NCBI RefSeq assembly: GCF_004010195.1
Contig: NC_057752.1
Span: 14,770,153 to 14,834,152 of the forward strand
DNA length: 64,000 nt
Reading direction: 5' to 3'
Origin: Chiloscyllium plagiosum
Taxonomy: Eukaryota
Both the position numbers and the translations under genes were made by a program. The notes below the pieces were generated by a model. That model searched no databases and was not told the origin of the DNA. It was given only the letters and a program-made list of their open reading frames with translations. How positions within the stretch are numbered: the stretch's first letter is position 1; every line of letters begins with the position of its first letter. Positions 4,119-64,000 of the stretch are shown here, one piece after another.

Positions 4119-7100
4119 TCATATCTCACACACACAGAGTGATAAAAGGTGGATCTGTGTCTGTGATTCCCTCACTAACACACACCGTGATAAAACAAGG
4201 ATCTATGTCTGTGATTCGTGCGCGCACACACACATTGATAAAACAAGGATCTGTGACTGTGATTCCCTCACACACACACCGTGATAAAACAAGGATCTGT
4301 GTCTGTGATTCCCTCACTAACACACACCGTGATAAAACAAGGATCTATGTCTGTGATTCGCGCGCGCACACACACACACATTGATAAAACAAGGATCTGT
4401 GACTGTGATTCCCTCACACACACACACACACCGTGATAAAACAAGGATCTGTGTCTGTGATTCCTTCACTAACACACACACAGTGATAAAACAAGGATCT
4501 ATGTCTGTGATTCCCGCACACACACACAGACACACACTGATAAAAGAAGGATGTGTCTGTGATTCCCTCACTCACACACACAGGGATAAAACAAGGATCT
4601 GCATCAGTGATTCCCTCACTAACACACACAGTAATAAAACAACTGTCTGAACCTGTGATTCCCTCACTCACACACACAGTGATTAAACAAGGATCTGAGT
4701 CTGTGATTCCCTCACTAACATGCACAGTGATAAAACAAGGATCTGCTCCTGTGATTCCCTCACTCACACACACAGTGATGGTACAAGGAACTGAGTCTGA
4801 GATTCCCTCACACACACACACAGTGAGAAAACACCTGTCTTCATCTGTGATTCCCTCACTCACAAACATAGTAATAAAACAAGGATCTGCGACTGGGATT
4901 CCCTCACTCACACACACACACACACACAGTGATAAAACAATGATCTGTGTCTGTGATTCCCTCACTAACATACGCAGTGATAAAGCATGGATCTGGGTCT
5001 GTCATACCCTCACCAACGCATACAGTGATAATACAAGGATCTGTGTCTATGATTCACTCACCCACACACACACAGTGATAAAACAAGGATCTGTCTCTGC
5101 GTATGATTCCTTCACTCACACCACTGAAAAAACTAGGATCTGTGTCTGTGATTCACACACACAAACACACACACAGCGATATAACAACGATATGTGTCTC
5201 TGTGCACTCAGTCAGGCACACGGTGATAAAGCAAGGATCTGTGTCCGTGATTCTCTCACTAACACAGAGACAGTGGAAAACAAGGATCTGTGTCTGTGAT
5301 TCCTTCACTCATAGTGAGTGATAAAACAAGGATCTGTGTGTGTGATCCCTCACTCTCACACACAGTGTTAAAACAAGGATCTTGTCGGTGATTCCCCAAC
5401 TCTCACACACAGTGATAGAAAAAGGATCTGTGTCTGTGATTCCCTCATTTAGAAACACAGTGATAAAACAAGGATCAGTGTCTGTGATTCACTCACACAC
5501 ACACAGCGATAAAACAAGCAGGAGGGTCTCTGATTCACTCGCTCACACACACAGTGATAAAACAAGGATATGTGTCTATGATTCACTTACTCACACACAC
5601 AGTGATAAAACAAGGATCTGTGTATGTGATTCCCTGACTCACACACACACGCACACATTGATAAAACAAGGATCTGTATGTGTGATTCCTTCACTAACAT
5701 ACACAGTGATAAAACAAGCAGCTGGGTCTGTGATTCCCTCACTAATACACACCGTGATAAAAACAAGGATCAGTGTCGATGATTCCCTCACTCACACACA
5801 CACACACGCACAGATAAAACAAGGATCTGGTTCTGTGATTCCCTCACTAACACACAGTTTGATAAACGAAGGATCTGTGTCTAAGATTCCCTCACTCACA
5901 CACACAGTGATAAAACAAGGATCTCTGTCTGTCTGTGATTCCCACACTCCACACCCACTGGTAAAAGAAGGATCTGTGTCTATGATTTCCTCACTCACGA
6001 ACACTCAGTGATAAACATGGATCTGGATCTGTGTCTCACTCACACGCACAGTGATAAAACATGGATCTGTGTCTGTGATCCCCTCACTAACACACGCACA
6101 CTGTGATAAAACAAGGATCTNNNNNNNNNNNNNNNNNNNNNNNNNNNNNNNNNNNNNNNNNNNNNNNNNNNNNNNNNNNNNNNNNNNNNNNNNNNNNNNN
6201 NNNNNNNNNNNNNNNNNNNNNNNNNNNNNNNNNNNNNNNNNNNNNNNNNNNNNNNNNNNNNNNNNNNNNNNNNNNNNNNNNNNNNNNNNNNNNNNNNNNN
6301 NNNNNNNNNNNNNNNNNNNNNNNNNNNNNNNNNNNNNNNNNNNNNNNNNNNNNNNNNNNNNNNNNNNNNNNNNNNNNNNNNNNNNNNNNNNNNNNNNNNN
6401 NNNNNNNNNNNNNNNNNNNNNNNNNNNNNNNNNNNNNNNNNNNNNNNNNNNNNNNNNNNNNNNNNNNNNNNNNCCCTCACTCACACACACAGTGATAAAA
6501 CAAGGTTCTCTGTATATGATTCCCTCACTCACACCACGGGAAAAACTAGGATCTGTATCTGTGATACACACACACAGCGATATAACAACGATACGTGTCT
6601 CTGTGCACTCAGTCATGCACACGGTGATAAAGCAAGGATCTGTGTCCGTGATTCTCTCACTAACACAGAGACAGTGGAAAACAAGGATATGTGTCTGTGA
6701 TTCCTTCACTCATAGTGAGTGATAAAACAAGGATCTGTGTGTGTGATCCCTCACTCTCACACACAGTGTTAAAACAAGGATCTTGTCTGTGATTCCCCAA
6801 CTCACACACACAGTAATAGAACAAGGATCTGTGTCTGTGATTCCCTCATTCAGCAACACAGTGATAAAACAAGGATCCGTGTCTGTGATTCACTCACACA
6901 CACACAGCGATAAAACAAATACCTGTGTCTGTGATTCAGTCACACACACACAGATACAGTGATAAAACAAGGATCTGTGTCTATGATTCCCTCACACACA
7001 CACACAGAGATAAAACAAGCAGCAGGGTCTCTGATTCTCTCACTAACACACACAGTGATAAAACAAGGAACTGTGTCTATCATTCTCTCACTCACACACA

Positions 7101-9037
7101 GTGATAAAACAAGGATCTGTGTCCATGATTCACTCGCGCGCACACACACAGTGATAAAACAAGGATCTGTATGTGTGATTCCTTCACTAACATACCCAGT
7201 GATGATACAAGCAGCTGGGTCTGTGATTCCCTCACTAATACACACAGTGATAAAAACAAGGATCAGTGTCTATGATTCCCTCACTCGCACACACACATGC
7301 ACAGATAAAACAAGGATCGGGTTCTGTGATTCCCTCACTAACACACAGGTTTATAAACGAAGGATCTGTGTCTATGATTCCCTCACTCACGCACACAGTG
7401 ATAAAACATGGATCTGTGTCTGTGATTCCCTCACTAACACACGCACACAGCGATAAAACAAGCAGGAGGGTCTCTGATTCCCTCACTCACACACACAGTG
7501 ATAAAACAAGGATCTGTGTCTGTGATTCCCTCACTCTCACACACAGTGATAAAACAAGGTTCTCTATATATGATTCCTTCACTCACACCACTGAAAAAAC
7601 TAAGATCTGTGTCTGTGATTCACACACACAGCGATATAACAACGATACGTGTCTCTGTGCACTCAGTCATGCACACGGTGATAAAGCAAGGATCTGTGTC
7701 CGTGATTCTCTCACTAATACAGAGACAGTGGAAAACAAGGATCTGTGTCTGTGATTCCCTCATTCAGAAACACAGTGATAAAACAAGGATCCGTGTCTGT
7801 GATTCACTCACACACACACACCGATAAAACAAATACCTGTGTCTGTGATTCACTCACACACACAGTGATATAACAACGATACGTGTCTCTGTGCACTCAG
7901 TCATGCACACGGTGATAAAGCAAGGATCTGTGTCCGTGATTCTCTCACTAACACAGAGACAGTGGAAAACAAGGATATGTGACTGTAATTCCTTCACTCA
8001 TAGTGAGTGATAAAACAAGGATCTGTGTGTGAGAGAGTGAGGGATCACACACAGTGTTAAAACAAGGATCTGTGTCTGTGATTTCCTCACTCTCACCGAA
8101 GGCATATAATAAGGACCTGTATCTGAAATTCCCGCACTCATATACAGTGACAAGACAAGGATACGTGTCTGTGATTCCTTCACTCACATGGAATGATAAA
8201 ACAAGGATGTGCATCAGTGATTCACTCACAAACACACAGCGATAAAACAAGGACTTGTGCCTGTGATTCCCTCACTCTCACTGACAGTGATAAAATAAGG
8301 ATCTGTGTCTCGGAATCCCTCACTAACACACAGTGACAAAACAAGGATCTTTGTCTGTGATTACCTCACACACACGCGCACATATAAAACAAGGATCTGG
8401 TTCTGCGATTCCAACACACAGGTTGATAAACGAAGGATCTGTGTATATGATTCCCTCACTCACGCACATAGTGACAAGACAAGGATCTGTGTCTGTGATT
8501 CCCTCACGAACACTGACAGTGACAAGACAAGGATCTGTGTCTGTGATTCCCTCACTAACACACAGTGACAAGACAAGGATCTGTGTCAATGATTCCTGCA
8601 CTAACACACACAGCAATAAAACAAGGATCTGAGTCTGTGATTCCCTCACACACAGACAGTGATAAAATAAGGATCTGTTTCTGGTAATCCCTCACTAACA
8701 CAGTGACAAAACAAGGATCTTTGTCTGTGATTACCTCACACACACGCGCACATATAAAACAAGGATCTGGTTCTGTGATTCCAACACACAGGTTGATAAA
8801 CGAAGGATCGGTGTCTATGATTCCCTCACTCACGCACATAGTGATAAAACAAGGATCTGTGTCTGTGATTCCCTCACGAACACTCACAGTGATAAACATG
8901 GATCTGGATCTGTGACTCACTCACTCGCACAGTGATAAAACATGGATCTGTGTCTGTGATTCTCTCACTCACACACAGTGACAAGACAAGGATCTGTTTC
9001 TGGTAATCCCTCACTAACAAGGATCTCTGTCTGCAAT

Positions 9038-9113: not shown

Positions 9114-9478
9114 TGCCTGTGTCTATGATTCTGTCACGAACGCGCAGTGAGAAAACAAGGCGTCAATAAGTAAGACCATATAACGTAAGGGCAGAAATTA
9201 TGCCATTCAGCCCATCGAATCTGCTCCACCATTGAATCATGGCTAATAAGTTTCTCAATCTCAGTCTCCTGCTTTCTCCCTGTCACCTTTGGTCCCCTTG
9301 ATACTCAAGAACCTATCTATCTCAGTCTTAAATGCACAGACTTGGCCTCCACAACCTTCTGTGGCAGTGAATTTCACAGATTCACCACTCTCTTGCTGAC
9401 GAGATTTCTCCTTATGTCTGTTCTACCAATGGAAATATCTTCCCAACATCCAATCTGTCCAGGCCCTTCAGTATTCTA

Positions 9479-9716
9479 GCTGAAAATGTGTTGCTGGAAA
9501 AGCGCAGCAGGTCAGGCAGCATCCAAGGAGCAGGAGAATCGACGTTTCGGGCATGAGCCCTTCTTCAGGATTCCTGAAAAAGAAAAGATTCCTGAAGAAG
9601 GGCTCATGCCCGAAACGTCGATTCTCCTGCTCCTTGAATGCTGCCTGACCTGTTGCGCTTTTCCAGCAACACATTTTCAGCTCTGATCTCCAGCATCTGC
9701 ACTCCTTACTTTCTCT
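9479..9716. mobile_element. Palindromic Penelope-derived mini-element, copy 1 (hammerhead motifs 9536-9573 minus, 9587-9624 plus)
   Basis: ~93-bp inverted arms (9478-9682) plus one-sided tail; 12-bp TSD TTCAGTATTCTA at 9467-9478 and 9717-9728. Confidence 0.85.
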
Positions 9717-10637
9717 TTCAGTATTCTATGTGTTTCAATTAGATCTTCTCCTCATCCTTCTAAATTTCATTGAGAATAAACCCAGAGTCTTCAAACGTTC
9801 CTCATATGTTAAGCTTTTCATTCCTGGGACCATTCTCATGAACCTCCTCTGAAAACACTCCAGGGCCAGTACATCCTTCCTGAGGTATGCAGCCCAAAGC
9901 TGTGCACAATACTCCAAATGTGGTCTGACCAAGCCTTATAGAGCCTCAGAATGACATCCCTGCTTTTATATTCAAGTCCTCTCAAAATAAATGCCACTTG
10001 CCTTCTTAACTACTGACTCAATCTGCAGGTTTACCTTGAGCGAATCCTGGACTAGAACTCCCAAGTCTCTTTGCAGTTCAGACTTCTGAATTTATCCCCA
10101 TTTAGAAAATAGTCCATGCCTCTATTCTTCCTACCAAAGTGCATGACCTCTCACTTTCCTATCTGCCACCTCTTTGCCCACTCTCCTAATCTGTCCAAAT
10201 CCTTCTGCAGCCTCCCTGCCTCCTCAATGCTACCAGTCCCTCTATCTATCTTTGTACCATTGGAAATTTAGCCAGAATGCCCCCAGTTCTTTCAGCTAGA
10301 TTGTTATTGTATAAAGTGAAAAGTTGTAGTCCCAACATTGAGCCCTCCAGAAGACCACATGTCACCAGCTATCATCCTGAGATTTTTTATCCCCTAATCC
10401 TCGTGATTCCTGAACGATCATCGCTAATGCTTCCACTATCTCTTCAGCTTTCTCCCTTAGAGCTCTGGGGCACAGTCCATTTGGTCCAGGTGATTTATCC
10501 ATGTTCAGGCCATTCCATTTTTCCTAGCACCCTCACCTTGGTGATGGCCACCATACTCAGCTCCGCCCTCTCACTCTCTTGAAGTTTTGGGATATTACTC
10601 ATGTTTTTCACTGTGAAGACTGACATGAAGTAATTAT

Positions 10638-10961: not shown

Positions 10962-11379
10962 ATGCCTCAGCAATTTCCTTGTTCCCCACTACCATCTCCC
11001 CAGCATCATTTTCCAGTGGCTCAATGTCCACTTTTGCCTCTCTTTTGCCATTCATATATCTAAAGGAACTCTGACAGTTTTCCTTCATATTACTGGCTAG
11101 CTCATCCTCATATTTAATCTTCTCCCTCCTTAATTCTTCTTTTGTTGCCCTCTGTTGATCTTTGCAAGCTTCCCAATCCTCTGGTTTCCCACTGCCCTTC
11201 AGCAAATTGTAGGCTTTCTCTTTTGCTTTTCTGCTATCCCTGACTTCTCCTGACAGCCATAGTTGCCTCATCCTCCCTGTACCATGCTCTATTTTCCTCA
11301 GGATGAATCTCTGTTGCGTCTCCTGCATTATTCCCAGAAACCCCTGCCGTTGTCTTTTCTGTGAGACTCCTCTCCTAGA

Positions 11380-11580
11380 TGTGGAGCTGGGAAAGCATAG
11401 CAGGTCAGACAGCATTCAAGGAGCAGGAAAGTCAACATTTCAGGCCAAAACCATTCGTCAGCACTGGGGATGGGAGCCCAGAAACAAATAGTGGGATGGG
11501 CCGAGGGGAAAGGTTGCTGGGATAGCGACAGGTGGGTGCAGGGTGTTATTGTGATGAGGCAGTGGGAAGGATGGAGCAGA
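11380..11580 (-). mobile_element. Decayed Penelope-like terminal fragment with degenerate hammerhead
   Basis: Similar to the palindrome arm; minus strand CTGACGA-atggttttggcct-GAAA-tgtt. Confidence 0.6.
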
Positions 11581-12340
11581 TACACACGCAGGGATAAAAC
11601 AAGGATCTGTGTCTGTCATTCCCACACTAACACACACATACACAGTGATAAAACAAGGACCTGCGTGTGTCCCTCCCTCACTAACACACACGGTGATAAA
11701 AAAGGGTCTGTATGATTCGGTCACACAGTGATCGGAATGTCTGCGATCCTCTGAAAAACACCCAGTGATGGAACTGAGGTCTGTGTTTCCCATATGATGA
11801 TGGGTCTGGTGTATCTGTGATTTCCTCACACACACAGTGATGTGACTGGGATTTGTGCCTGTGATTCCCTCACACACAGCACAGTGTTGGGACTGCAGTC
11901 TGTTTCTGTGATTCTCTTCAACAGACAAATGATGTGACTGGGAGTCTTTGTGCACGATTCCCTCACACACACACACACATGCAGTGATCAAAGTGGGGAA
12001 AGGGGGAGGTGTTTGTGTGTTTCCCAAACAATACTGGAGTCTGTGTCTGTGGTTCTTTCATGAATACACACACTGATCAGACTAGGGTCTGTATCTATGA
12101 TTCCCTGATACATACACAGATCTCAGGTCATATCATCATGTGTATGTGGTTCCCTCACTAACATACACACAGTGGTGTGACTGGGGTTTGTGCCTCTGGT
12201 TTTATCACTAACACACATAGTAATCAGATTCAGGTCTGTGTCTTTGATTGCCTCACACACTGGCTTATTGGTCTGGTAATTGTATCACACTGAGATTGTC
12301 TCACACTGTGTTGGGGTTGGTGTCTATGACTGTGATTAAG
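11580..12340. repeat. Degenerate cluster of the same 48-bp minisatellite
   Basis: gataaaacaaggatctgtgtctg units decaying rightwards into cacagtgat..ctgg..tgtgattccctcacac. Confidence 0.8.
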
Positions 12341-12905: not shown

Positions 12906-13316
12906 CTCTCATACTCTTTCCAAAATGTTTTCAAAGAAACATGAATGTAGAATTCGGTCAACCTTATTTCAAGGAAGTCTGGCCTCTGTGTTCAAATTGG
13001 TGTGTCCTGTCATTTTTCTTTGCGTAAGTCCTACATCGACCACCCCAAAAACATTTTCAACTTGAATTGTATACATGTCGGTAACTTCTGCACGGAGTTT
13101 TTGACAGATTTCCTCATTCATGCACCAGCCTTGCAGTTCTGCATATAGGCCGCTAGGTGACATCATGGAAGAGATGGGTTTACCTTCAGCTGGAGGACAC
13201 GGATCACACAACAACTACTTTTATTTAGCTCACACTTTCATTGCGTTAAACCATTTCAAAATGCTTCACAGAAGCATTATAAAATGAAAAACGAAAGGGC
13301 ACTGCTTGTCACTGAG

Positions 13317-13556
13317 GAGAAAGTGAGGTCTGCAGATGCTGGAGATCAGAGCTGAAAATGTGTTGCTGGAAAAGCGCAGCAGGTCAGGGAGCATCCAAGG
13401 AGCAGGAGAATCGACGTTTCGGACATGAGCCCTTCTTCAGGAATCTTTTCTTTTTCAGGAATCCTGAAGAAGGGCTCATGCCCGAAACGTCGATTCTCCT
13501 GCTCCTTGGATGCTGCCTGACCTGCTGCGCTTTTCCAGCAACACATTTTCAGCTCT
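13317..13556. mobile_element. Palindromic Penelope-derived mini-element, copy 2 (hammerhead motifs 13408-13445 minus, 13459-13496 plus)
   Basis: Inverted arms 13348-13556; central spacer is the exact reverse complement of the copy 1 spacer; no clean TSD. Confidence 0.85.
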
Positions 13557-20009: not shown

Positions 20010-22105
20010 ATCACGGAGACATGGTTCAGGATGGTCATGACTGGCAGTTAAATATCCAGGGGTACCAGACTACTCGGAAGGACAGACAAGAAAGTAAGGG
20101 AGGTGGTGCAGCTCTGAAATTCAAGGATGGCATGAGGGCAGTTCTATAGGTTCTATGGAGAATTAGGTTGAATGCATCTGGGTGAAAATTAGAAATTCTA
20201 AGAAGAAAAAGTCACTAATAAGCGTAGTCCATAGGCCACCAAATAATAATATCACATTGGGGCGGGCAGTACAATGAAAATAAGTAATGCCTGTAAAAAT
20301 GGTACGGCTATTATCATGAGGGATTTTAATCTACAAATTGGTTGAACCAGCTTGGTCAGGGTAGCCTTGAGGGGGGGTTTGTTGTGTGTATCCATGATAG
20401 TTTTCTTGAACAGTATGGAACTGATGAGGGAGCAAGCTATCCTAGATCTGGTCCTGTGTAATGAGACAGGAATAATTAATGAACTCACAGTAATGGGTCC
20501 TCTTGGAAGGAGTGATCACAGTATGGTTGAATTTAGAATACAGATGGAGAGTGTGAAGATAAAATCCAATACCAGGGGTCCTGTGCTTGAACAAGGGAGG
20601 ACTTGGCTAAAGTAAACTGGAAACAAAGATTTTATGGTGGGACAGTTAACGAGCAGTGGAGGACTTTCAAAGCAATTTTGCAATGTGCTCAGCAAAAGTA
20701 TATTCCAGGGAAAAGGAAGGAGTGTAAGAAAAGGAGTAATCTGCCATGGGTGTCTAAGGAAATATGGAAGGCTATCAAAGTGAAAGAGAAGGCATAAAAA
20801 GTCGCCAAAAACAGCATGAAACTAGAAGATTGGGAAAATTTTAAAGGTCAACAGAAAGCAACAAATAGAGCTCTTAAGAAAAGTAAGGTAGAACATGAGA
20901 AAAACCTAGCACAGAATATACAAACAGCTACTATAAATAGATAAAATGAAAAAGAGTGGCTAAAGCAAATGTTGGCATGGCATTGAATAGGTATTTTGTA
21001 TCGGTCTTCACTGTGGAGGACACTAATAACATGTCAGTAATTGACAAACAGAGTATGGTAGGTGAGGACCTGGTAACAATCATTATTATGGAAGAGGGAG
21101 TGTTGGGCAAACTAATGGAGCTAAGGATAGACAAATCTCCTGGCCCTGATGGAATGCATCCCAGCATACTAAAAGAGATGTGGGAGAAATAGCAAGTGCA
21201 CTAGTGGTAATTTTCCAAAATTTGCTGGGCTCTGGGGCAGTCCCAGCAGATTGGAAAGCAGCAAATGTGACGCCACTGTTTAAAAAGGGAGGCAGACAAA
21301 AGATGGTGAATGATCGATCGGTTAGCTTAACCTCTGTCATAGGGAAAATGCTTGAGTCTATTATCAAGGAAGAAATAGCAGGGCATCTCAATAGAAATTG
21401 TCCCATTGGGCAGACACAGCAATGGGTTCATGAAGGGCAGGTCATGATTAATAAATCTTTTGGAATATTATGAAGGCATTACGAGCAAGGTTGACAAAGG
21501 GGACCCAGTGGATGTGGTGTCCCTAGATTTCCAAAAGGCCCTTGAGAAGGTGCTGCACATGAGGCTGCTGCATAAGGTAAGGACGCATGGTGCTAGGGGT
21601 AAAGTATTAGCATGGATAGACGATTGGTGGACTAAAAGGAAGCAAAGAGTGGGGATCAATGAGTGCTATTCTGGCTGGCAATCAGTGACTAGTGGTGTGC
21701 CTCAGGGATCGGTGTTGGGACCTCAATTATTCCCCATTTATGTAGTAGATGATTTGGAGTTGGGGACCACGTGTTGTGTGTCAACGTTTGTAGATGATAC
21801 TAAGGTGAGTGGCAGAGCAAAGTGTGCAGGGGATTGTGAAACTTTGCAGAGGAAGTTAGATACATTGAATGAGGGGGCAAAGGTCTGGCAGATGGAATAA
21901 ACGTGAAGTCATCCATTTTGGTGGGAGTAATAATAAAAAGGATTGTTATTTGAATGGTAAAAAGTTGCAGCATGCTGCTGTGCAGAGGGACCTGGGTGTC
22001 CTTGTGCATGAATCACAGAAGGTACGAGTGATGAGGAAGGCGAATGGAATTTTGTCCTTCATTGCTCAAGGGACGGAGTTTAAAAGCAGGGAGGTTATGT
22101 TGTGA
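20010..22105 (+). mobile_element. CR1-type LINE ORF2 (EN-RT), 3' truncated
   Basis: ORFs 20352..20615, 21180..21473 and 21460..21900 with CR1 motifs; mirror of 14600-16690. Confidence 0.9.
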
Positions 22106-26212: not shown

Positions 26213-29100
26213 TATAGAACATAGAACATTACAGTGCAGTACAGGCCCTTCGGCTCTCGATGTTGTGCCGACCTGTCATACCAATCTGAAGCCCATCTAA
26301 CCTACACTATTCCATGTACGTCCATATGCTTGTCCAATGACGACTTAAATGTACTTAAAGTTGGCGAATCTACTACCGTTGCAGGCAAAGCATTTTCTCT
26401 CTGAATAAAGAAACTACCTCTGACATCTGTCCTATATCTATCACCCCTCAATTTAAAGCTATGCACCCTCGTGCTCACCGTCATGATACTTGGAAAAAGG
26501 CTCTCCGTGTCCACCCTATCTAACCCTCTGATTATCTTAAATGGCTCTATTAAGTCACCTCTCAACCTTCTTCTCTCTAATGAAAACAGCCTCAAGTCCC
26601 TCAGCCTTTCCTCGTAAGACTTTCCCTCCATACCAGGCAACATCCTAGTAAACCTCCTCTGCACCCTTTCCAAAGCTTCCACATCCTTCTTGTAATGCGG
26701 TGACCAGAACTGTACACAGTACTCTAAGTGCGGCCGCACCAGAGTTTTGTACAGCTGTAGCAGAACCTCATGGTTCCCGAACTTGATCCCTCTATTAATA
26801 AAAGCTAAAACACTGTATGCCTTCTAAACAACCCTGTCAACCTGGGTGGCAACTTTCAAGGATCTGTGTACCTGGACACAGAGATCTCTCTGCTCATCTA
26901 CACTACCAAGAATCCTACCATTAGCCCAGTACTTTGCATTCTGGTTACTCCGACCAAAGTGAATCACCTCACACTTGTCCGCATTAAACTCCATTTGCCA
27001 CCTCTCAACCCAGGTCTGCAGCTTATCTATGTCTCTCTGTGACCTACAACATCCTTCGTCACTATCCATAACTTTACCCACCTTAGTGCCGTCTGCAAAT
27101 TTACTAACCCACCCTTCTACGCCCTCATCCAGGTCATTTATAAAAATGACGAACAGCAGTGGACCCAACACTGACCCTTGCGGTATACCACTAGTAACTG
27201 GACTCCAGGATGAACATTTCCCATCAACCACCACTCTCTGTCTTCTTTCAGCAAGCCAATTACTGATCCAAACTGCTATATCTCCCACAATCCCATTCCT
27301 CCGCATTTTGTACAAGAGTCTACTGTGGGGAACCTTGTCGAACGCCTTGCTGAAATCCATATACACCACGTCAACTGGTTTACTCTCATCTACCGTGGGC
27401 GGCACGGTGGCACAGTGGTTAGCACTGCTGCCTTACAGTGCCTGAGACCTGGGTTCAATTCCCACCTCAGGCGACTGACTGTGTGGAGTTTGCAGGTTCT
27501 CCCCGTGTCTGCGTGGGTTTCCTCCGGGTGCTCCGGTTTCCTCTCACAGTCCAAAGATGTGCAGGGTCAGGTGAATTGGCCATGCTAAATTGCCCGTAGT
27601 GTTAGGTAAGGGGTAAATGTAGGGGTATGGGTGGGTTGCGCTTCAGCGGGTCGGTGTGGACTTGTTGGGCCGAAGGGCCTGTTTCCACACTGTAATGTAA
27701 TCTAGTCCACCTGTTTGGTCACCTTCTCAAAGAACTCAATAAGGTTTGTGAGGCACGACGTACCTTCACAAAACCGTGCTGACTATCCCTAATCAAATTA
27801 TTATTTTCTAGATGATTATAAATCCTATCTCTTATAACCTTTTCCAACACTTTACCAACAACTGAAGTAAGGCTCACTGGTCTATAATTACCAGGGTTGT
27901 CTCTACTCCCCTTCTTGAACAGGAGAACCACATTTACTATCCTGCAGTCTTCTGGCACTATTCCTGTGGACAATGACGATTTAAAGATCAATGCCAAAGG
28001 CTCGGCAATCTCCTCCCTGGCTTCCCAGAGGATCCTAGGATAAATCCTTTCCGGCCCTGGGACTTATCTATTTTCACACTCTGCAGGATTTCTAATACCT
28101 CCTTCTAATTCCTTGCGAACCTCAATCACACCTAGTCTAGTAACTTGTATCTCATTAATCTCCTCGACAACATTGTCGTTTTCTAGAGTGAATATTGTTG
28201 AAAAATATTCATTTAGTGCTTCCCCTACCTCCTCTGACTCCACACACAACTTCCCACTACTATCCTTGATTGGCCCTAATCTTACTCTCGTCATTCTTTT
28301 ATTCCTTAAATACCTATAGAAAGCCTCAGGGTTCACCCTGATCCTATCCGCAAACAACGTCTCATGTCTCCTTCTGGCTCTTCTGAGCTCTCTCTTTAGG
28401 TCTTTCCTGGCTACCTTGTAACCCTCAAGNNNNNNNNNNNNNNNNNNNNNNNNNNNNNNNNNNNNNNNNNNNNNNNNNNNNNNNNNNNNNNNNNNNNNNN
28501 NNNNNNNNNNNNNNNNNNNNNNNNNNNNNNNNNNNNNNNNNNNNNNNNNNNNNNNNNNNNNNNNNNNNNNNNNNNNNNNNNNNNNNNNNNNNNNNNNNNN
28601 NNNNNNNNNNNNNNNNNNNNNNNNNNNNNNNNNNNNNNNNNNNNNNNNNNNNNNNNNNNNNNNNNNNNNNNNNNNNNNNNNNNNNNNNNNNNNNNNNNNN
28701 NNNNNNNNNNNNNNNNNNNNNNNNNNNNNNNNNNNNNNNNNNNNNNNNNNNNNNNNNNNNNNNNNNNNNNNNNNNNNNNNNNNNNNNNNNNNNNNNNNNN
28801 NNNNNNNNNNNNNNNNNNNNNNNNNNNNNNNNNNNNNNNNNNNNNNNNNNNNNNNNNNNNNNNNNNNNNNNNNNNNNNNNNNNNNNNNNNNNNNNNNNNN
28901 NNNNNNNNNNNNNNNNNNNNNNNNNNNNNNNNNNNNNNNNNNNNNNNNNNNNNNNNNNNNNNNNNNNNNNNNNNNNNNNNNNNNNNNNNNCTCCTTTCCT
29001 GTTTCTAACTTTCAGCCCATATACCTCAGTTGACGAGTCCCCAAACATCCTTTCTACAACTGTAATACTGTCCTTGACCAACAATGCCACACCTCCCCCT
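26213..29100 (-). mobile_element. Relatively young CR1-type LINE interrupted by a SINE (27397-27704) and an N gap (28430-28990)
   Basis: ORFs 26302..26739, 26824..27405 (YMDFSKAFDKVPH), 27719..27997 (NYRPVSLTS), EN piece at 28991-29100; atagaac tail. Confidence 0.92.
27397..27704 (+). mobile_element. HE1-type SINE, full length
   Basis: GGGCGGCACGGTGGCACAGTGGTTAGCACT head, GGTTCAATTCC B box, core and tail. Confidence 0.92.
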
Positions 29101-39612: not shown

Positions 39613-39726
39613 CTGGAGGAAAAAGGTGGCTAACATGGTCAAAATCAATCATGAGACTGGATGTTAAAGAGATTATGGACAAGCTCGCAGAAGTGATTAC
39701 ATCTCATTGGCTAAAATTACATTAAG

Positions 39727-39947
39727 GAGAAAGTGAGGTCTGCAGATGCTGGAGATCAGAGCTGAAAATGTGTTGCTGGAAAAGCGCAGCAGGTCAGGCA
39801 GCATCCAGGGAACAGGAGAATCGACGTTTCGGGCATAAGCCCTTCTTCAGGAATTCCTGAAGAAGGGCTTATGCCCGAAATGTCGATTCTCCTGTTCCCT
39901 GGATGCTGCCTGACCTGCTGCGCTTTTCCAGCAACACGTTTTCAGCT
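39727..39947. mobile_element. Palindromic Penelope-derived mini-element, copy 3, in a SPRYD3 intron (hammerhead motifs 39818-39855 minus, 39852-39889 plus)
   Basis: Spacer-less palindrome 39760-39947 centred on GAATTC (39851-39856), 2 mismatches; 17-bp TSD GCTAAAATTACATTAAG at 39710-39726 and 39945-39961. Confidence 0.9.
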
Positions 39948-40014
39948 AAAATTACATTAAGTTCTGTATAAATTAAATACATTAATGCAGATTCTTTGGG
40001 CACTAATCTTTCAG

Positions 40015-60036: not shown

Positions 60037-60787
60037 GTGGGAAAAATATACTTCCTAGATGTTGAACCCAGAATATCAGGATATTGTTCCAGTGTCCTCT
60101 ATTACAACTGATCCCTGGGTGAGGGTCCACAACTTATGATTGCATATGGGATACCCCTAAATGATTATGCTCCTGACTGAGGAGCAATGAACTTGATCCC
60201 CTTTTCTCACTTGACATGTCCCTGTAGAAAGGACCCCTTCTCATGGACACATTTTCCCAGCCCAAAAATTATGTTTTAAAAGGAGTCNNNNNNNNNNNNN
60301 NNNNNNNNNNNNNNNNNNNNNNNNNNNNNNNNNNNNNNNNNNNNNNNNNNNNNNNNNNNNNNNNNNNNNNNNNNNNNNNNNNNNNNNNNNNNNNNNNNNN
60401 NNNNNNNNNNNNNNNNNNNNNNNNNNNNNNNNNNNNNNNNNNNNNNNNNNNNNNNNNNNNNNNNNNNNNNNNNNNNNNNNNNNNNNNNNNNNNNNNNNNN
60501 NNNNNNNNNNNNNNNNNNNNNNNNNNNNNNNNNNNNNNNNNNNNNNNNNNNNNNNNNNNNNNNNNNNNNNNNNNNNNNNNNNNNNNNNNNNNNNNNNNNN
60601 NNNNNNNNNNNNNNNNNNNNNNNNNNNNNNNNNNNNNNNNNNNNNNNNNNNNNNNNNNNNNNNNNNNNNNNNNNNNNNNNNNNNNNNNNNNNNNNNNNNN
60701 NNNNNNNNNNNNNNNNNNNNNNNNNNNNNNNNNNNNNNNNNNNNNNNNNNNNNNNNNNNNNNNNNNNNNNNNNNNNNNNNNNNNNNN

Positions 60788-63339: not shown

Positions 63340-64000
63340 GCCTTGATAAGGTTCCCCATGGTAAGCTCATTCAGAAGGTCAGGAGGAATGGGATACAGGG
63401 GAACTTACCTGTCTGGATACAGAATTGGCTGGCCCACAGAAGACAGCGAGTGGTCGTAGAAGGAAAATATTCTGCCTGGAAGTCAGTGGTGAGTGGTGTT
63501 CCACAGGGCTCTGTCCTTGGGCCTCTACTGTTTGTAATTTTTATTAATGACTTGGATGAGGGGATTGAAGGATGGGTCAGCAAGTTTGCAGACNNNNNNN
63601 NNNNNNNNNNNNNNNNNNNNNNNNNNNNNNNNNNNNNNNNNNNNNNNNNATTGAGTTTAAGAGTCGTGAGATCTTGTTGCAGATTTATAAAACTTTGGTT
63701 AGACCGCACTTGGAATACTGCGTCCAGTTCTGGTCGCTCTATTATAGGAAAGATGTGGATGCTTTGGAGAGGGTTCAGAGGAGGTTTACCAGGATGCTGC
63801 CTGGACTGGAGGGCTTATCTTATGAAGAGAGGTTGACTGAGCTCGGACTTTTTTCATTGGAGAAAAGGAGGAGGAGAGGGCACCTAATTGAGGTATGCAA
63901 GACAATGAGAGGCATAGATAGAGTCGATAGCCAGAGACTATTTCCCAGGGCAGAAATTACTAACACGAGGGGTCATAGTTTTAAGCTGGTTGGACGAAAG
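63340..64000 (+). mobile_element. CR1-type LINE RT region (N gap 63594-63649)
   Basis: [35 protein letters not shown]. Confidence 0.92.

Follow-up and report, generated by a model that had tools for sequence, protein, structure and literature searches.

A 238-bp palindrome at positions 9479 to 9716 of the window (the whole 64,000-nucleotide stretch of Chiloscyllium plagiosum DNA analyzed here, to which all coordinates refer) carries a hammerhead motif on each strand and lies between the two copies of a perfect 12-bp target duplication. The locus raises the question of whether such an object spreads as a unit of its own or is left behind by a larger element. The original prediction held that it is a non-autonomous hairpin amplified as a unit, retrozyme- or MITE-like. 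We favor another reading, to which we assign a probability of roughly 0.8: the palindrome represents the hammerhead-bearing end of an endonuclease-positive (EN+) Penelope-like element (PLE), inserted as a short dead end, and its two arms were likely each reverse transcribed at the target from the first ~95 to 130 nt of the element RNA and then joined midway. It was likely built anew at each landing rather than spread as its own unit.

The layout of the locus (Table 1) agrees closely with what had been expected from the letters. A palindrome of ~240 bp with ~93-bp arms had been described, and the repeat search returned inverted arms at 9478 to 9573 and 9587 to 9682, each of 96 nt, 97% complementary and separated by 13 nt. 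The claimed 12-bp duplication is exact on both sides. The asymmetry, put at ~33 bp, was measured at 35 nt, with one arm stopping at ...TTTTCAGC (9681) and the other running on to ...CTTTCTCT. The outer end of the tail-less arm, GCTGAAAATG, is the reverse complement of the proximal 3' end ...CATTTTCAGC, and this discrete end is common to all 30 of the nearest copies and to the single arms that were sampled. In the center, ATTCCTGAA is a 9-nt sense-oriented repeat of the arm start and makes a small fold-back with CTTCAGG. The statement that the element lacks coding capacity was roughly right, but mirrored ATG frames of 66 and 68 amino acids, and only these, are present in 9479 to 9716.

Table 1. 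Parts of the palindrome (copy 1) and of related insertions, in window coordinates
Feature	Position	Strand	Description
Left target-site duplication copy	9467-9478	.	12 bp, TTCAGTATTCTA; repeat family, 100% identical to 9717-9728
Tail-less inverted arm	9479-9569	-	Starts GCTGAAAATG, inward to ...CTTCAGG
Hammerhead motif, minus strand	9541-9568	-	Stem I strands 9569-9573 and 9536-9540, perfect GAAUC/GAUUC; predicted cut between 9541 and 9540
Small fold-back at center	9563-9578		
Private center	9570-9586	+	ATTCCTGAA then filler AAAGAAAA
Extra G preceding ATTCC	9587	+	C at same position in long copies
Complete sense arm	9588-9681	+	ATTCC to proximal 3' end ...CATTTTCAGC
Hammerhead motif, plus strand	9592-9619	+	Stem I strands 9588-9591 and 9620-9623, only AUUC/GAUU with U.U mismatch; predicted cut after C9619
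35-nt tail, one arm only	9682-9716	+	TCTGATCTCCAGCATCTGCACTCCTTACTTTCTCT, between the family's two alternative 3' ends
Right target-site duplication copy	9717-9728	.	12 bp; repeat search
Older diverged end-piece	11379-11461	-	Related family, 78% identity; decayed hammerhead motif 11434-11461
Copy 2	13316-13553	-	97% identical to copy 1, same private center, other flanks
Copy 3	39726-39945	-	Haplotype TTC; center CTTCAGGAATTCCTGAAG without spacer
Duplication flanking copy 3	39711-39725 and 39946-39960		15 bp, TTAATGTAATTTTAG

The motif CTGAAGA-A-GGGC-TCAT-GCCC-GAAA-CGTC was located on both strands, and the perfect stem I of the minus-strand motif was confirmed; both had been described beforehand. 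A relaxed pattern, CTGANGAN{10,18}GAAAYRTY, has 7 matches in the window against 0.07 expected, a number reached in 0 of 100 shuffles. Dual minimal hammerheads on opposite strands, 100 to 700 bp apart, have been reported by Cervera and de la Pena (2014; PMC4209133), whose hallmarks are an extra base between positions 9 and 10.1, a G10.1-C11.1 pair, a palindromic 15.2-16.2 and no stem III. Here the catalytic boxes CUGAAGA ... GAAA-CGUC on both strands correspond to those of the minimal hammerhead (C3-U4-G5-A6-N7-G8-A9 and G12-A13-A14, A15.1/U16.1, H17); an extra A follows A9, stem II is GGGC/GCCC with a UCAU loop, positions 15.2-16.2 are CG, and there is no stem III. As in the ribozymes of metazoan PLEs, CUGANGA and GAAA boxes, an unpaired base between 9 and 10.1, G10.1-C11.1, CG at 15.2-16.2 and a short stem I are all found, and the likeness supports, at the level of the motif, its proposed reading as the minimal, stem-III-less hammerhead of PLEs. 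Stem II differs in length, with 4 bp in this family versus 7 to 8 bp in the schistosome families (PMC4209133), and cleavage here is a prediction.

The proposed covariance-model check gave a different outcome. Rfam hammerhead models had no match at the gathering score across the window, and no hammerhead family was returned at E<=10 over 9400 to 9800. This is expected for a motif lacking stem III; the ribozyme call is accordingly one made from the motif itself. Several microRNA-type Rfam models appeared at E<=10, all far below their cut-offs, and were dismissed as a consequence of the long hairpin. The predicted hairpin fold (-192 kcal/mol, z about -23.7) is in keeping with the suggestion that a ribozyme motif arises whichever strand is transcribed and is sequestered in a hairpin; on this model a transcript of either strand would hold one hammerhead buried in 96 bp. 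Minimal hammerheads cleave as dimers, according to the work of Lunse et al. (2017) as presented in the available part of a review (PMC6765202).

A PLE origin with inverted termini and a one-sided extension had also been proposed, and the longer relatives of the arms bear it out. In long copies the sequence is ...CTTGGCACACTTTCCTC-ATTCCTGAAG, which has 27,574 exact matches, and the haplotypes of the palindromes also occur in long copies that run upstream into a pLTR and a GIY-YIG-type open reading frame. The frames of loci L093 and L024 contain a CxxC...LLYIGE(T/S)GR...HF...GLN-type endonuclease signature and end ~190 to 200 nt before the hammerhead, so that the long copies have an untranslated stretch of ~200 nt between frame and ribozyme motif. 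Pfam GIY-YIG matched L024:2073-2420 at an E value of 0.031, below the curated cut-off. A longer homolog of the L024 frame, P0001 (77% identical), matched RVT_1 (E=0.0077) and GIY-YIG (E=2.5e-4), both again short of the curated cut-offs, and the Atlas clusters nearest to it combine RVT_1, HTH_animal and GIY-YIG (feature score, 0.96; TM, 0.65). Pfam returned 0 families for the single decayed frames of L093 and L095. Since N-masking affects many of the upstream stretches, none of the fetched loci yielded a full RT-EN frame next to a hammerhead. Judged by its sequence features, with RT-EN Pfam scores that stay under the cut-offs, the family is assigned to the putative EN+ PLEs.

The family is very abundant, with tens of thousands of copies. 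The 26-nt end of the tail, in its family form, has 43,158 exact matches in the genome (21,526 + 21,632), compared with 0 for the reversed control. Copies end on the 3' side at one of two discrete points, 34 to 35 nt apart; single arms terminate at either point, and in the first 20 G-ATTCC matches the tail may sit on either arm. Of the 92 tails examined, from about 80 distinct places among the fetched loci, none continues into shared downstream sequence, and a tandem or internal continuation was accordingly rejected. A clean duplication match of 14 to 19 nt, 64% A+T, was present in 23 of 29 evaluated copies. A search of a phage collection gave no match to the palindromic element.

These ends bear on an origin at the DNA level without retrotransposition, by a hairpin-forming inverted duplication or as the MITE of a DNA transposon. 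Terminal inverted repeats and a flanking duplication are what such an origin would leave, but the ends are asymmetric, with the 35-nt tail on one arm, complete arms carry an extra G at the 5' end, and the 3' ends are common to single arms and to long copies that bear an RT-EN-type frame. In a MITE the terminal inverted repeats would be symmetric, the duplication would have a set length and copies would share one internal sequence, whereas here the tail is one-sided, the length of the duplication ranges from about 12 to 15 nt or more and 19 different centers were counted among 30 copies. No transposase-bearing parent with the same termini was seen among the fetched loci, and we consider an origin at the DNA level extremely improbable.

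The junctions between the arms speak to the proposal that a non-autonomous ~240-bp palindrome is itself transcribed and copied whole. Among 29 distinct tail-anchored places, taken in contig order by the 26-nt tail, 17 are head-to-head pairs with unequal arms, and all of the inner breakpoints differ. Random breakpoints had been named beforehand as the sign that would tell against amplification as a unit, and they were seen in 17 of 17 pairs. The 19 different centers (our count) come from the 30 copies most like copy 1, chosen by likeness to the query palindrome, which carries AAAGATT. The private-center string of copy 1 (25 nt, GGATTCCTGAAAAAGAAAAGATTCC) occurs exactly twice in the 3.56-Gb genome, in copies 1 and 2. 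Amplification as a unit is not supported by these data. A few junction types do recur, as whole-unit copying would lead one to expect: CTTCAG joined to GATTCC in 3 of 10 palindromes, and CTTCAGGAAAGATTCCTGAAG and its mirror in 12 of the 30 nearest copies. However, the recurrent junctions were found on different haplotypes, and the presence of the palindrome haplotypes in long copies likewise argues against a separately propagating unit.

The second observation in favor of whole-unit copying is that copies 1 and 2 share their private center at 97% identity with different flanks. These copies lie 3.6 kb apart, and since a chance landing that close is very unlikely, the pair argues against retro-copying. 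Four differences between them fall in the last 15 nt of the tail and four in the other ~222 nt, and copy 2 joins a body of haplotype CCT to a tail of the CAGACC form, otherwise seen with haplotype TTC; the concentration of differences in the tail and the mixed type of copy 2 point to a conversion tract. Segmental duplication was rejected because the flanks are unrelated except for old repeats at 65% identity. As the odd center is shared only by these two copies, so near to each other, it was most likely passed by local gene conversion between two independent stubs. The recurrence of one architecture at 13317 and 39727 was therefore predicted only in part correctly: the copies are real, but the 18-nt spacer is common only to copies 1 and 2, the center of copy 3 being CTTCAGGAATTCCTGAAG, and the duplication that is perfect in copy 1 is imperfect in copy 2 (TCAGTCTAACAAG versus TCAGTGACAAG). 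Because some junctions recur and copies 1 and 2 share a center, whole-unit copying may apply to a minority of copies; as the origin of the palindrome at 9479 to 9716 it is highly unlikely.

The 5' ends of complete arms are also discrete. Complete arms begin at one point, G-ATTCC, with a G that is not in the long copies. The genome contains 8,875 matches to G-ATTCC..., compared with 6,019 to A/T-ATTCC..., and the long type, CCTC-ATTCC..., accounts for 27,574. All of the first 20 G-ATTCC matches (19 distinct places) start an arm there, 10 of them preceded by an inverted arm cut at varying points and 10 by plain flank; in those 10 palindromes the complete arm bears the tail in 6 cases and its partner does in 4. 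A nontemplated addition, rather than a copied cap, could account for the extra G. AAAGATT before CCTGAAG, which with its mirror is likewise found in 12 of the 30 nearest copies, was considered as a special 5' leader or a flip-flop loop and dropped, because its share (249 exact matches to AAAGATT... of the 8,875 to GATT...) is about that expected by chance from A-rich flank and because those 30 copies were picked with an AAAGATT-bearing query.

The two arms of one palindrome share a subfamily haplotype. Discordance at at least 2 of 3 diagnostic sites was seen in 0 of 39 distinct palindromes, whereas shuffling the arms, a null that assumes subfamilies not active at different times, gave 17.2 expected discordant palindromes and a minimum of 7 in 10,000 shuffles. 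Same-haplotype arms fit fold-back self-priming as well as twin priming. With fold-back, one target strand primes, the cDNA snaps back at the RNA 5' end and the second arm copies the first; the small fold-backs at some centers, such as that of copy 1, would suit this course, and self-priming is proposed for Penelope inverted junctions in the available part of Arkhipova et al. (2013; PMC3846280). A strand copied back, however, should take in the tail or break off at variable positions, and the tail-less arm always ends at the same discrete point, one that also serves single arms as a 3' end. The distribution of the tail (complete G-bearing arm tailed in 6 of 10, tail-less in 4 of 10) and the extension of both strands by the PAc protein (PMC11167929) also weigh against fold-back, which we regard as unlikely.

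For the preferred reading, a dead-end insertion with both target strands primed, the in vitro study of Frangieh et al. (2024; PMC11167929) supplies a possible course. In that study both strands are cleaved and extended by the protein of PAc, an anole element, cDNA synthesis begins at two neighboring internal sites that bracket the tail, and hammerhead cleavage is dispensable. In C. plagiosum, the element's protein would likewise nick the two strands of the target, and each 3'-OH would prime cDNA synthesis from one or other of a pair of neighboring internal sites in the RNA, the distal site giving the arm with the tail. Because the start sites are only ~95 to 130 nt from the RNA's own 5' end, which would lie 6 nt before the hammerhead core, each cDNA would run off that end. 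The cDNA that finishes second would then jump onto the 3' end of the first and seal the head-to-head palindrome, sometimes with filler or a small fold-back, as at 9570 to 9586.

A contribution of ribozyme cleavage to the 5' ends was considered and set aside. Arms starting at the predicted cleavage product number 1,177 in the genome against 855 and 656 at the neighboring positions, a weak excess at most and no sharp peak. We infer that the hammerhead was brought along uncut and serves no function of its own in the palindrome at 9479 to 9716. On a long copy, depth in run X1 and in the single-cell poly(A) RNA run X21 followed genomic copy number on both strands, and run X22 gave no reads; on the palindrome the depth in runs X15, X16, X3 and X21 also tracked genomic copy number on both strands. 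No sites where RNA molecules begin or end stood out in X21, a library type unsuited to 5'-end mapping. An empty site of the palindrome was not seen in other sequencing runs; its flanks are high-copy repeats too, so the depth does not speak to this single locus.

The inverted structures of LINE-1 offer a comparison. In the twin priming reportedly set out by Ostertag and Kazazian in 2001, both nicked target strands are said to prime cDNA on the element RNA, and the two LINE-1 cDNAs are said to be joined at microhomology to yield an inverted structure. The second primer reportedly anneals at varying internal places on one RNA, so that inversion is accompanied by deletion. PLE arms, in contrast, start at fixed sites and both can reach the RNA 5' end, which yields a true palindrome.

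The shape of the palindrome (inverted terminal repeat, one-sided tail, duplication and minimal hammerhead) is already in print. The available part of Craig et al. (2021; PMC8557442) describes an inverted, 5'-truncated PLE copy with a one-sided tail of 30 to 40 bp, and that of Arkhipova et al. (PMC3846280) an inverted pLTR, a 31-bp tail, duplications of 8 to 10 bp and palindromes at the inverted junction. The tail, inverted arm and duplication found here match the published Penelope insertion signature. The end-pieces resemble the insertion units of EN+ PLEs in being arranged head to head, in having a tail (35 nt) on one side and two alternative 3' ends, in their short AT-rich duplications and frequent 5' truncation, in the hammerhead of the terminal repeat and, for long copies, in the GIY-YIG-type frame upstream. 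Unlike those units, the palindrome is reduced to two ~95-nt arms with no open reading frame between, and its family has duplications of about 12 to 15 nt, compared with the 8 to 10 nt given for rotifer PLEs in the part of the literature available. Neither the family nor its copy number in this genome was found in print by a literature search, with Repbase and Dfam outside its scope.

Animal non-LTR retrozymes, in the available part of a preprint by Li, Clavereau and Pollet (2026; 10.64898/2026.07.22.740005), are short, noncoding, hammerhead-bearing and derived from PLE pLTRs, and the palindrome resembles them in each of these respects as far as that source goes. As described there, retrozymes are direct tandem repeats in which two ribozymes release a unit able to circularize. 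The palindrome differs in that its arms are inverted, with one motif per strand, whereas retrozymes have direct tandem units with hammerheads in the same orientation; one transcript of an inverted pair thus holds one ribozyme and its complement.

Taken by itself, the palindrome at 9479 to 9716 is one of very many end-pieces, dead on arrival, left by a retrotransposon of a known class. Annotators should avoid labeling palindromes of this kind as retrozymes, MITEs or microRNA hairpins. Short and very numerous as they are, the stubs offer in their centers and ends base-level statistics on where PLE reverse transcription starts, where the template RNA starts and how the cDNAs are joined, matters only partly answered by one in vitro study (PMC11167929). 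We hypothesize, with somewhat less than even confidence, that the thousands of palindromic and single-arm stubs are an in vivo record of PLE insertion, in which reverse transcription would begin at a fixed pair of sites inside the first ~130 nt of a capped RNA whose 5' end lies 6 nt ahead of the hammerhead core, one RNA source would serve for the extension of both strands, an end-to-end template jump would seal the product and the hammerhead would stay uncut. If this is true, the steps left open by the in vitro study would be readable directly from genome junctions.

The palindrome, the hammerhead motif on each strand, and the 12-nt duplication described in the original prediction were borne out by repeat search and by inspection of the sequence, with small corrections. 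The recurrence placed at about 13317 and 39727 was confirmed as well, a BLAST search within the window recovering both copies; as corrections, the center of copy 3 differs from that of the element studied here (copy 1), and the duplication around copy 2 is imperfect. In copy 1, the left arm halts at CTTCAGG and is followed by a 9-nt turn-back (ATTCCTGAA), by AAAGAAAA, and then by the full G-ATTCC arm.

Features of the palindromic element (copy 1) and its further copies in the window
Feature	Position	Strand	Description	Basis
Palindromic element	9479-9716		238 bp	Repeat search
Inverted arms	9478-9573 and 9587-9682		96 nt each, 97% complementary, 13 nt between	Repeat search
Direct repeat	9467-9478 and 9717-9728		Perfect, 12 nt, TTCAGTATTCTA	Repeat search
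Hammerhead motif	9592-9619	+	CTGAAGA-A-GGGC-TCAT-GCCC-GAAA-CGTC	Sequence reading
Hammerhead motif	9541-9568	-	CTGAAGA-A-GGGC-TCAT-GCCC-GAAA-CGTC	Sequence reading
Tail	9682-9716		Right arm 35 nt longer than left	Sequence reading
Copy 2	13316-13553	-		BLAST of element against window
Copy 3	39726-39945	-		BLAST of element against window

As a by-product of its symmetry, the palindrome contains mirror-image ATG frames (66 and 68 amino acids, starting MCCWKSA) on its two strands, at 9468-9686. The flanks at 9200-9466 and 9740-10000 also belong to sequence present in many copies, with contig depths in DNA runs that sum to 10^4-10^5, so the stub, as we call such short end-pieces, sits inside another repeat. 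Elsewhere, many short overlapping matches at 65-80% identity in 8046-9014 and 11809-12260 suggest arrays of a ~75-nt tandem unit.

A relaxed form of the hammerhead pattern matches seven places in the window, where chance would give 0.07: two in each of the three palindromes and one decayed relative at 11434-11461. That decayed hammerhead (CTGACGAATGG...GAAATGTT) is part of an older relative of the family at 11379-11461 (78% identity), which has different upstream sequence. The Rfam hammerhead models did not report the motif in the window, a silence that is expected of a hammerhead without stem III. Four hallmarks of the minimal hammerheads of Penelope-like elements (PLEs) were given by Cervera and de la Pena (PMC4209133), and all four are present in copy 1: the catalytic boxes, a base between 9 and 10.1, the G10.1-C11.1 pair, and the palindromic 15.2-16.2. 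Its plus-strand stem I is AUUC/GAUU, with one U.U mismatch. Minimal hammerheads have been reported in pairs, one on each strand, at distances of 100-700 bp (PMC4209133). The minimal hammerheads of PLEs are poor cleavers in vitro, acting as dimers or when aided by protein (PMC11167929, PMC4209133), and hammerhead mutants of the anole element PAc insert equally well (PMC11167929). In the shark genome, 1,177 arms start at the predicted cleavage product and 855 and 656 at the positions next to it, which argues that cleaved RNA is not a favored template. The whole-element transcript is predicted to fold into a 96-bp hairpin in which the core is fully paired (-191.8 and -192.6 kcal/mol; z of -23.7 and -23.6). 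We see no basis for ribozyme function in copy 1. A 27-codon frame begins at an ATG within hammerhead loop II, much as the open reading frame of the anole element starts at stem II (PMC11167929).

Long copies of the family read ...CTTTTATCTTAGCCTGCTTGGCACACTTTCCTC-ATTCCTGAAGAAGGGC, which has 27,574 exact matches genome-wide. In two of them (L093 and L024), a frame with a GIY-YIG-type endonuclease signature ends about 190-200 nt upstream of the hammerhead; the Pfam match of the L024 frame to GIY-YIG is below the cutoff (E=0.031). This L024 frame shares 77% identity with a 486-amino-acid uncharacterized protein of a bamboo shark, which has weak, subthreshold Pfam matches to RVT_1 (E=0.0077) and GIY-YIG (E=2.5e-4) and for which the nearest ESM-Atlas clusters carry RVT_1, HTH_animal, and GIY-YIG (feature score 0.96, TM 0.65). 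In endonuclease-positive (EN+) PLEs, the reverse transcriptase precedes a GIY-YIG domain at the C terminus (PMC8557442), and the family is therefore filed as a putative EN+ PLE, with each Pfam score below threshold and many upstream stretches masked. Runs of N end at variable distances upstream of the hammerhead in several loci, which limited reading of the parent frame; those in the window lie at 6121-6473, 28430-28990, 60288-60787, and 63594-63649.

The 3' ends of the arms are discrete and of two kinds, falling at ...CATTTTCAGC or 34-35 nt beyond, at ...CACTTTCTCC, and none of 92 tails (about 80 places) had shared downstream sequence past the tail. Complete arms read G-ATTCC and long copies C-ATTCC. 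Exact matches to G-ATTCCTGAAGAAGGGCT number 8,875, versus 6,019 in which the G is replaced by A or T, so that G is about four times as frequent as base composition would predict. In the first 20 G-ATTCC matches in contig order (19 distinct places), the arm begins exactly there every time; 10 are preceded by an inverted arm that is broken off at variable positions, and 10 by plain flank. We infer that such a sharp 5' end, bearing one G that has no template, marks a cDNA run to the end of its RNA; the G could have been copied from a cap or added terminally. The sequence AAAGATT, found in copy 1 and its near relatives, was rejected as a special leader, being merely G-ATT after three A's (249 of the 8,875); that the 30 near relatives had been chosen by likeness to an AAAGATT-bearing query was also counted against it. 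At L093:1510-1637, three RNA reads and one contig join 1637, four bases beyond the tail end (1633) and in flank, back to 1510, near the start of the arm ("goes back 128"). The join was taken for a genomic arrangement, not circular RNA, and is probably a stub abutting another, 5'-truncated stub somewhere.

In the 3.56-Gb assembly, the last 26 nt of the tail in its family form match exactly at 21,526 plus 21,632 places, and the reversed control at none. A structure-independent sample, the first 30 tail matches in contig order (29 distinct places), was classed by inspection and comprised 17 head-to-head pairs, 5 single arms, and 1 tail alone, the remainder being long copies or masked upstream. 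The arms of the pairs are mostly unequal, and every inner junction is different. The self-propagating unit first envisaged is thus not borne out, since 17 of 29 places being pairs with all-different inner junctions is the refuting result that the original prediction had named. Among the 30 copies most like copy 1, the outer ends are common to all and the duplications clean in nearly all, and 19 different centers were counted. The duplication is a clean match of 14-19 nt, a length that includes a few bases overlapping the element ends, in 23 of 29 evaluable copies (64% A+T). The first flank base after ...CTTTCTCC, part of the duplication, is T in 24 of these 30, often followed by A, and the nick may favor a T(A) site; the anole element prefers 5'-ATT-3' (PMC11167929). 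One single-arm stub occurs twice, 3.7 kb apart, with about 120 nt of identical flank (L117 and L118; G000:C1:3888075-3888405, 3891759-3892090), the stub having been duplicated locally as part of a larger segment. No RNA record is listed for the locus of copy 1. RNA read depth over the family tracks genomic copy number on both strands, the flanks of copy 1 also being repeats, and the same reads have no favored starts or ends; they neither support nor weaken the reading of the element as a PLE stub.

Two papers describe PLE insertions with an inverted 5'-truncated copy, a one-sided tail of 30-40 bp, duplications of short length, and inverted junctions that contain palindromes (PMC8557442, PMC3846280). 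The protein of the anole element cleaves and extends both target strands, reverse transcription starts at two adjacent internal RNA sites without target homology, and the tail corresponds to what lies between those sites (PMC11167929). The genome data fit this scheme, the template being very short. In this genome, the tail lies on the complete arm in 6 of 10 palindromes and on the other arm in 4, and the junction CTTCAG/GATTCC, which recurs in 3 of 10, would arise if an unfinished cDNA jumped onto the 3' end of a finished one. The main rival is fold-back, with the second arm copied from the cDNA of the first. Of 39 distinct palindromes, none has arms that disagree at more than one of the three diagnostic sites (arm shuffling gives 17.2), and the two arms of each have a common source; this concordance fits one RNA source for both arms and equally a fold-back copy. 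Fold-back is, however, opposed by the tail-less arm always ending at a fixed proximal site and by the fact that either arm may be the complete one. Formation by an anole-like scheme is likely.

The private center of copies 1 and 2 has exactly two genome matches, those two copies in the window. The flanks of the two copies are unrelated. Between the copies the left arm and center are identical, the right arm has 4 differences, and the final 15 nt of the tail have another 4. Copy 2 combines a CCT-type body (a haplotype at the diagnostic sites) with the CAGACC tail form, elsewhere paired with TTC-type bodies. Reinsertion of the whole palindrome is unlikely; the copies are only 3.6 kb apart, and a retro-copy would land so near by chance about once in a million. 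We think it probable that the center was shared by gene conversion between two independent neighboring stubs.

Retrozyme identity was rejected: a retrozyme is a tandem direct repeat (preprint 10.64898/2026.07.22.740005), unlike the inverted arms seen here. MITE identity was also rejected. A search limited to the literature found no paper on this family in sharks. The element belongs to a class already described: insertions of EN+ PLEs that have an inverted terminal repeat, a tail, and a duplication and that carry the known minimal hammerhead. The modest value of such stubs is as a base-level record of Penelope insertion.
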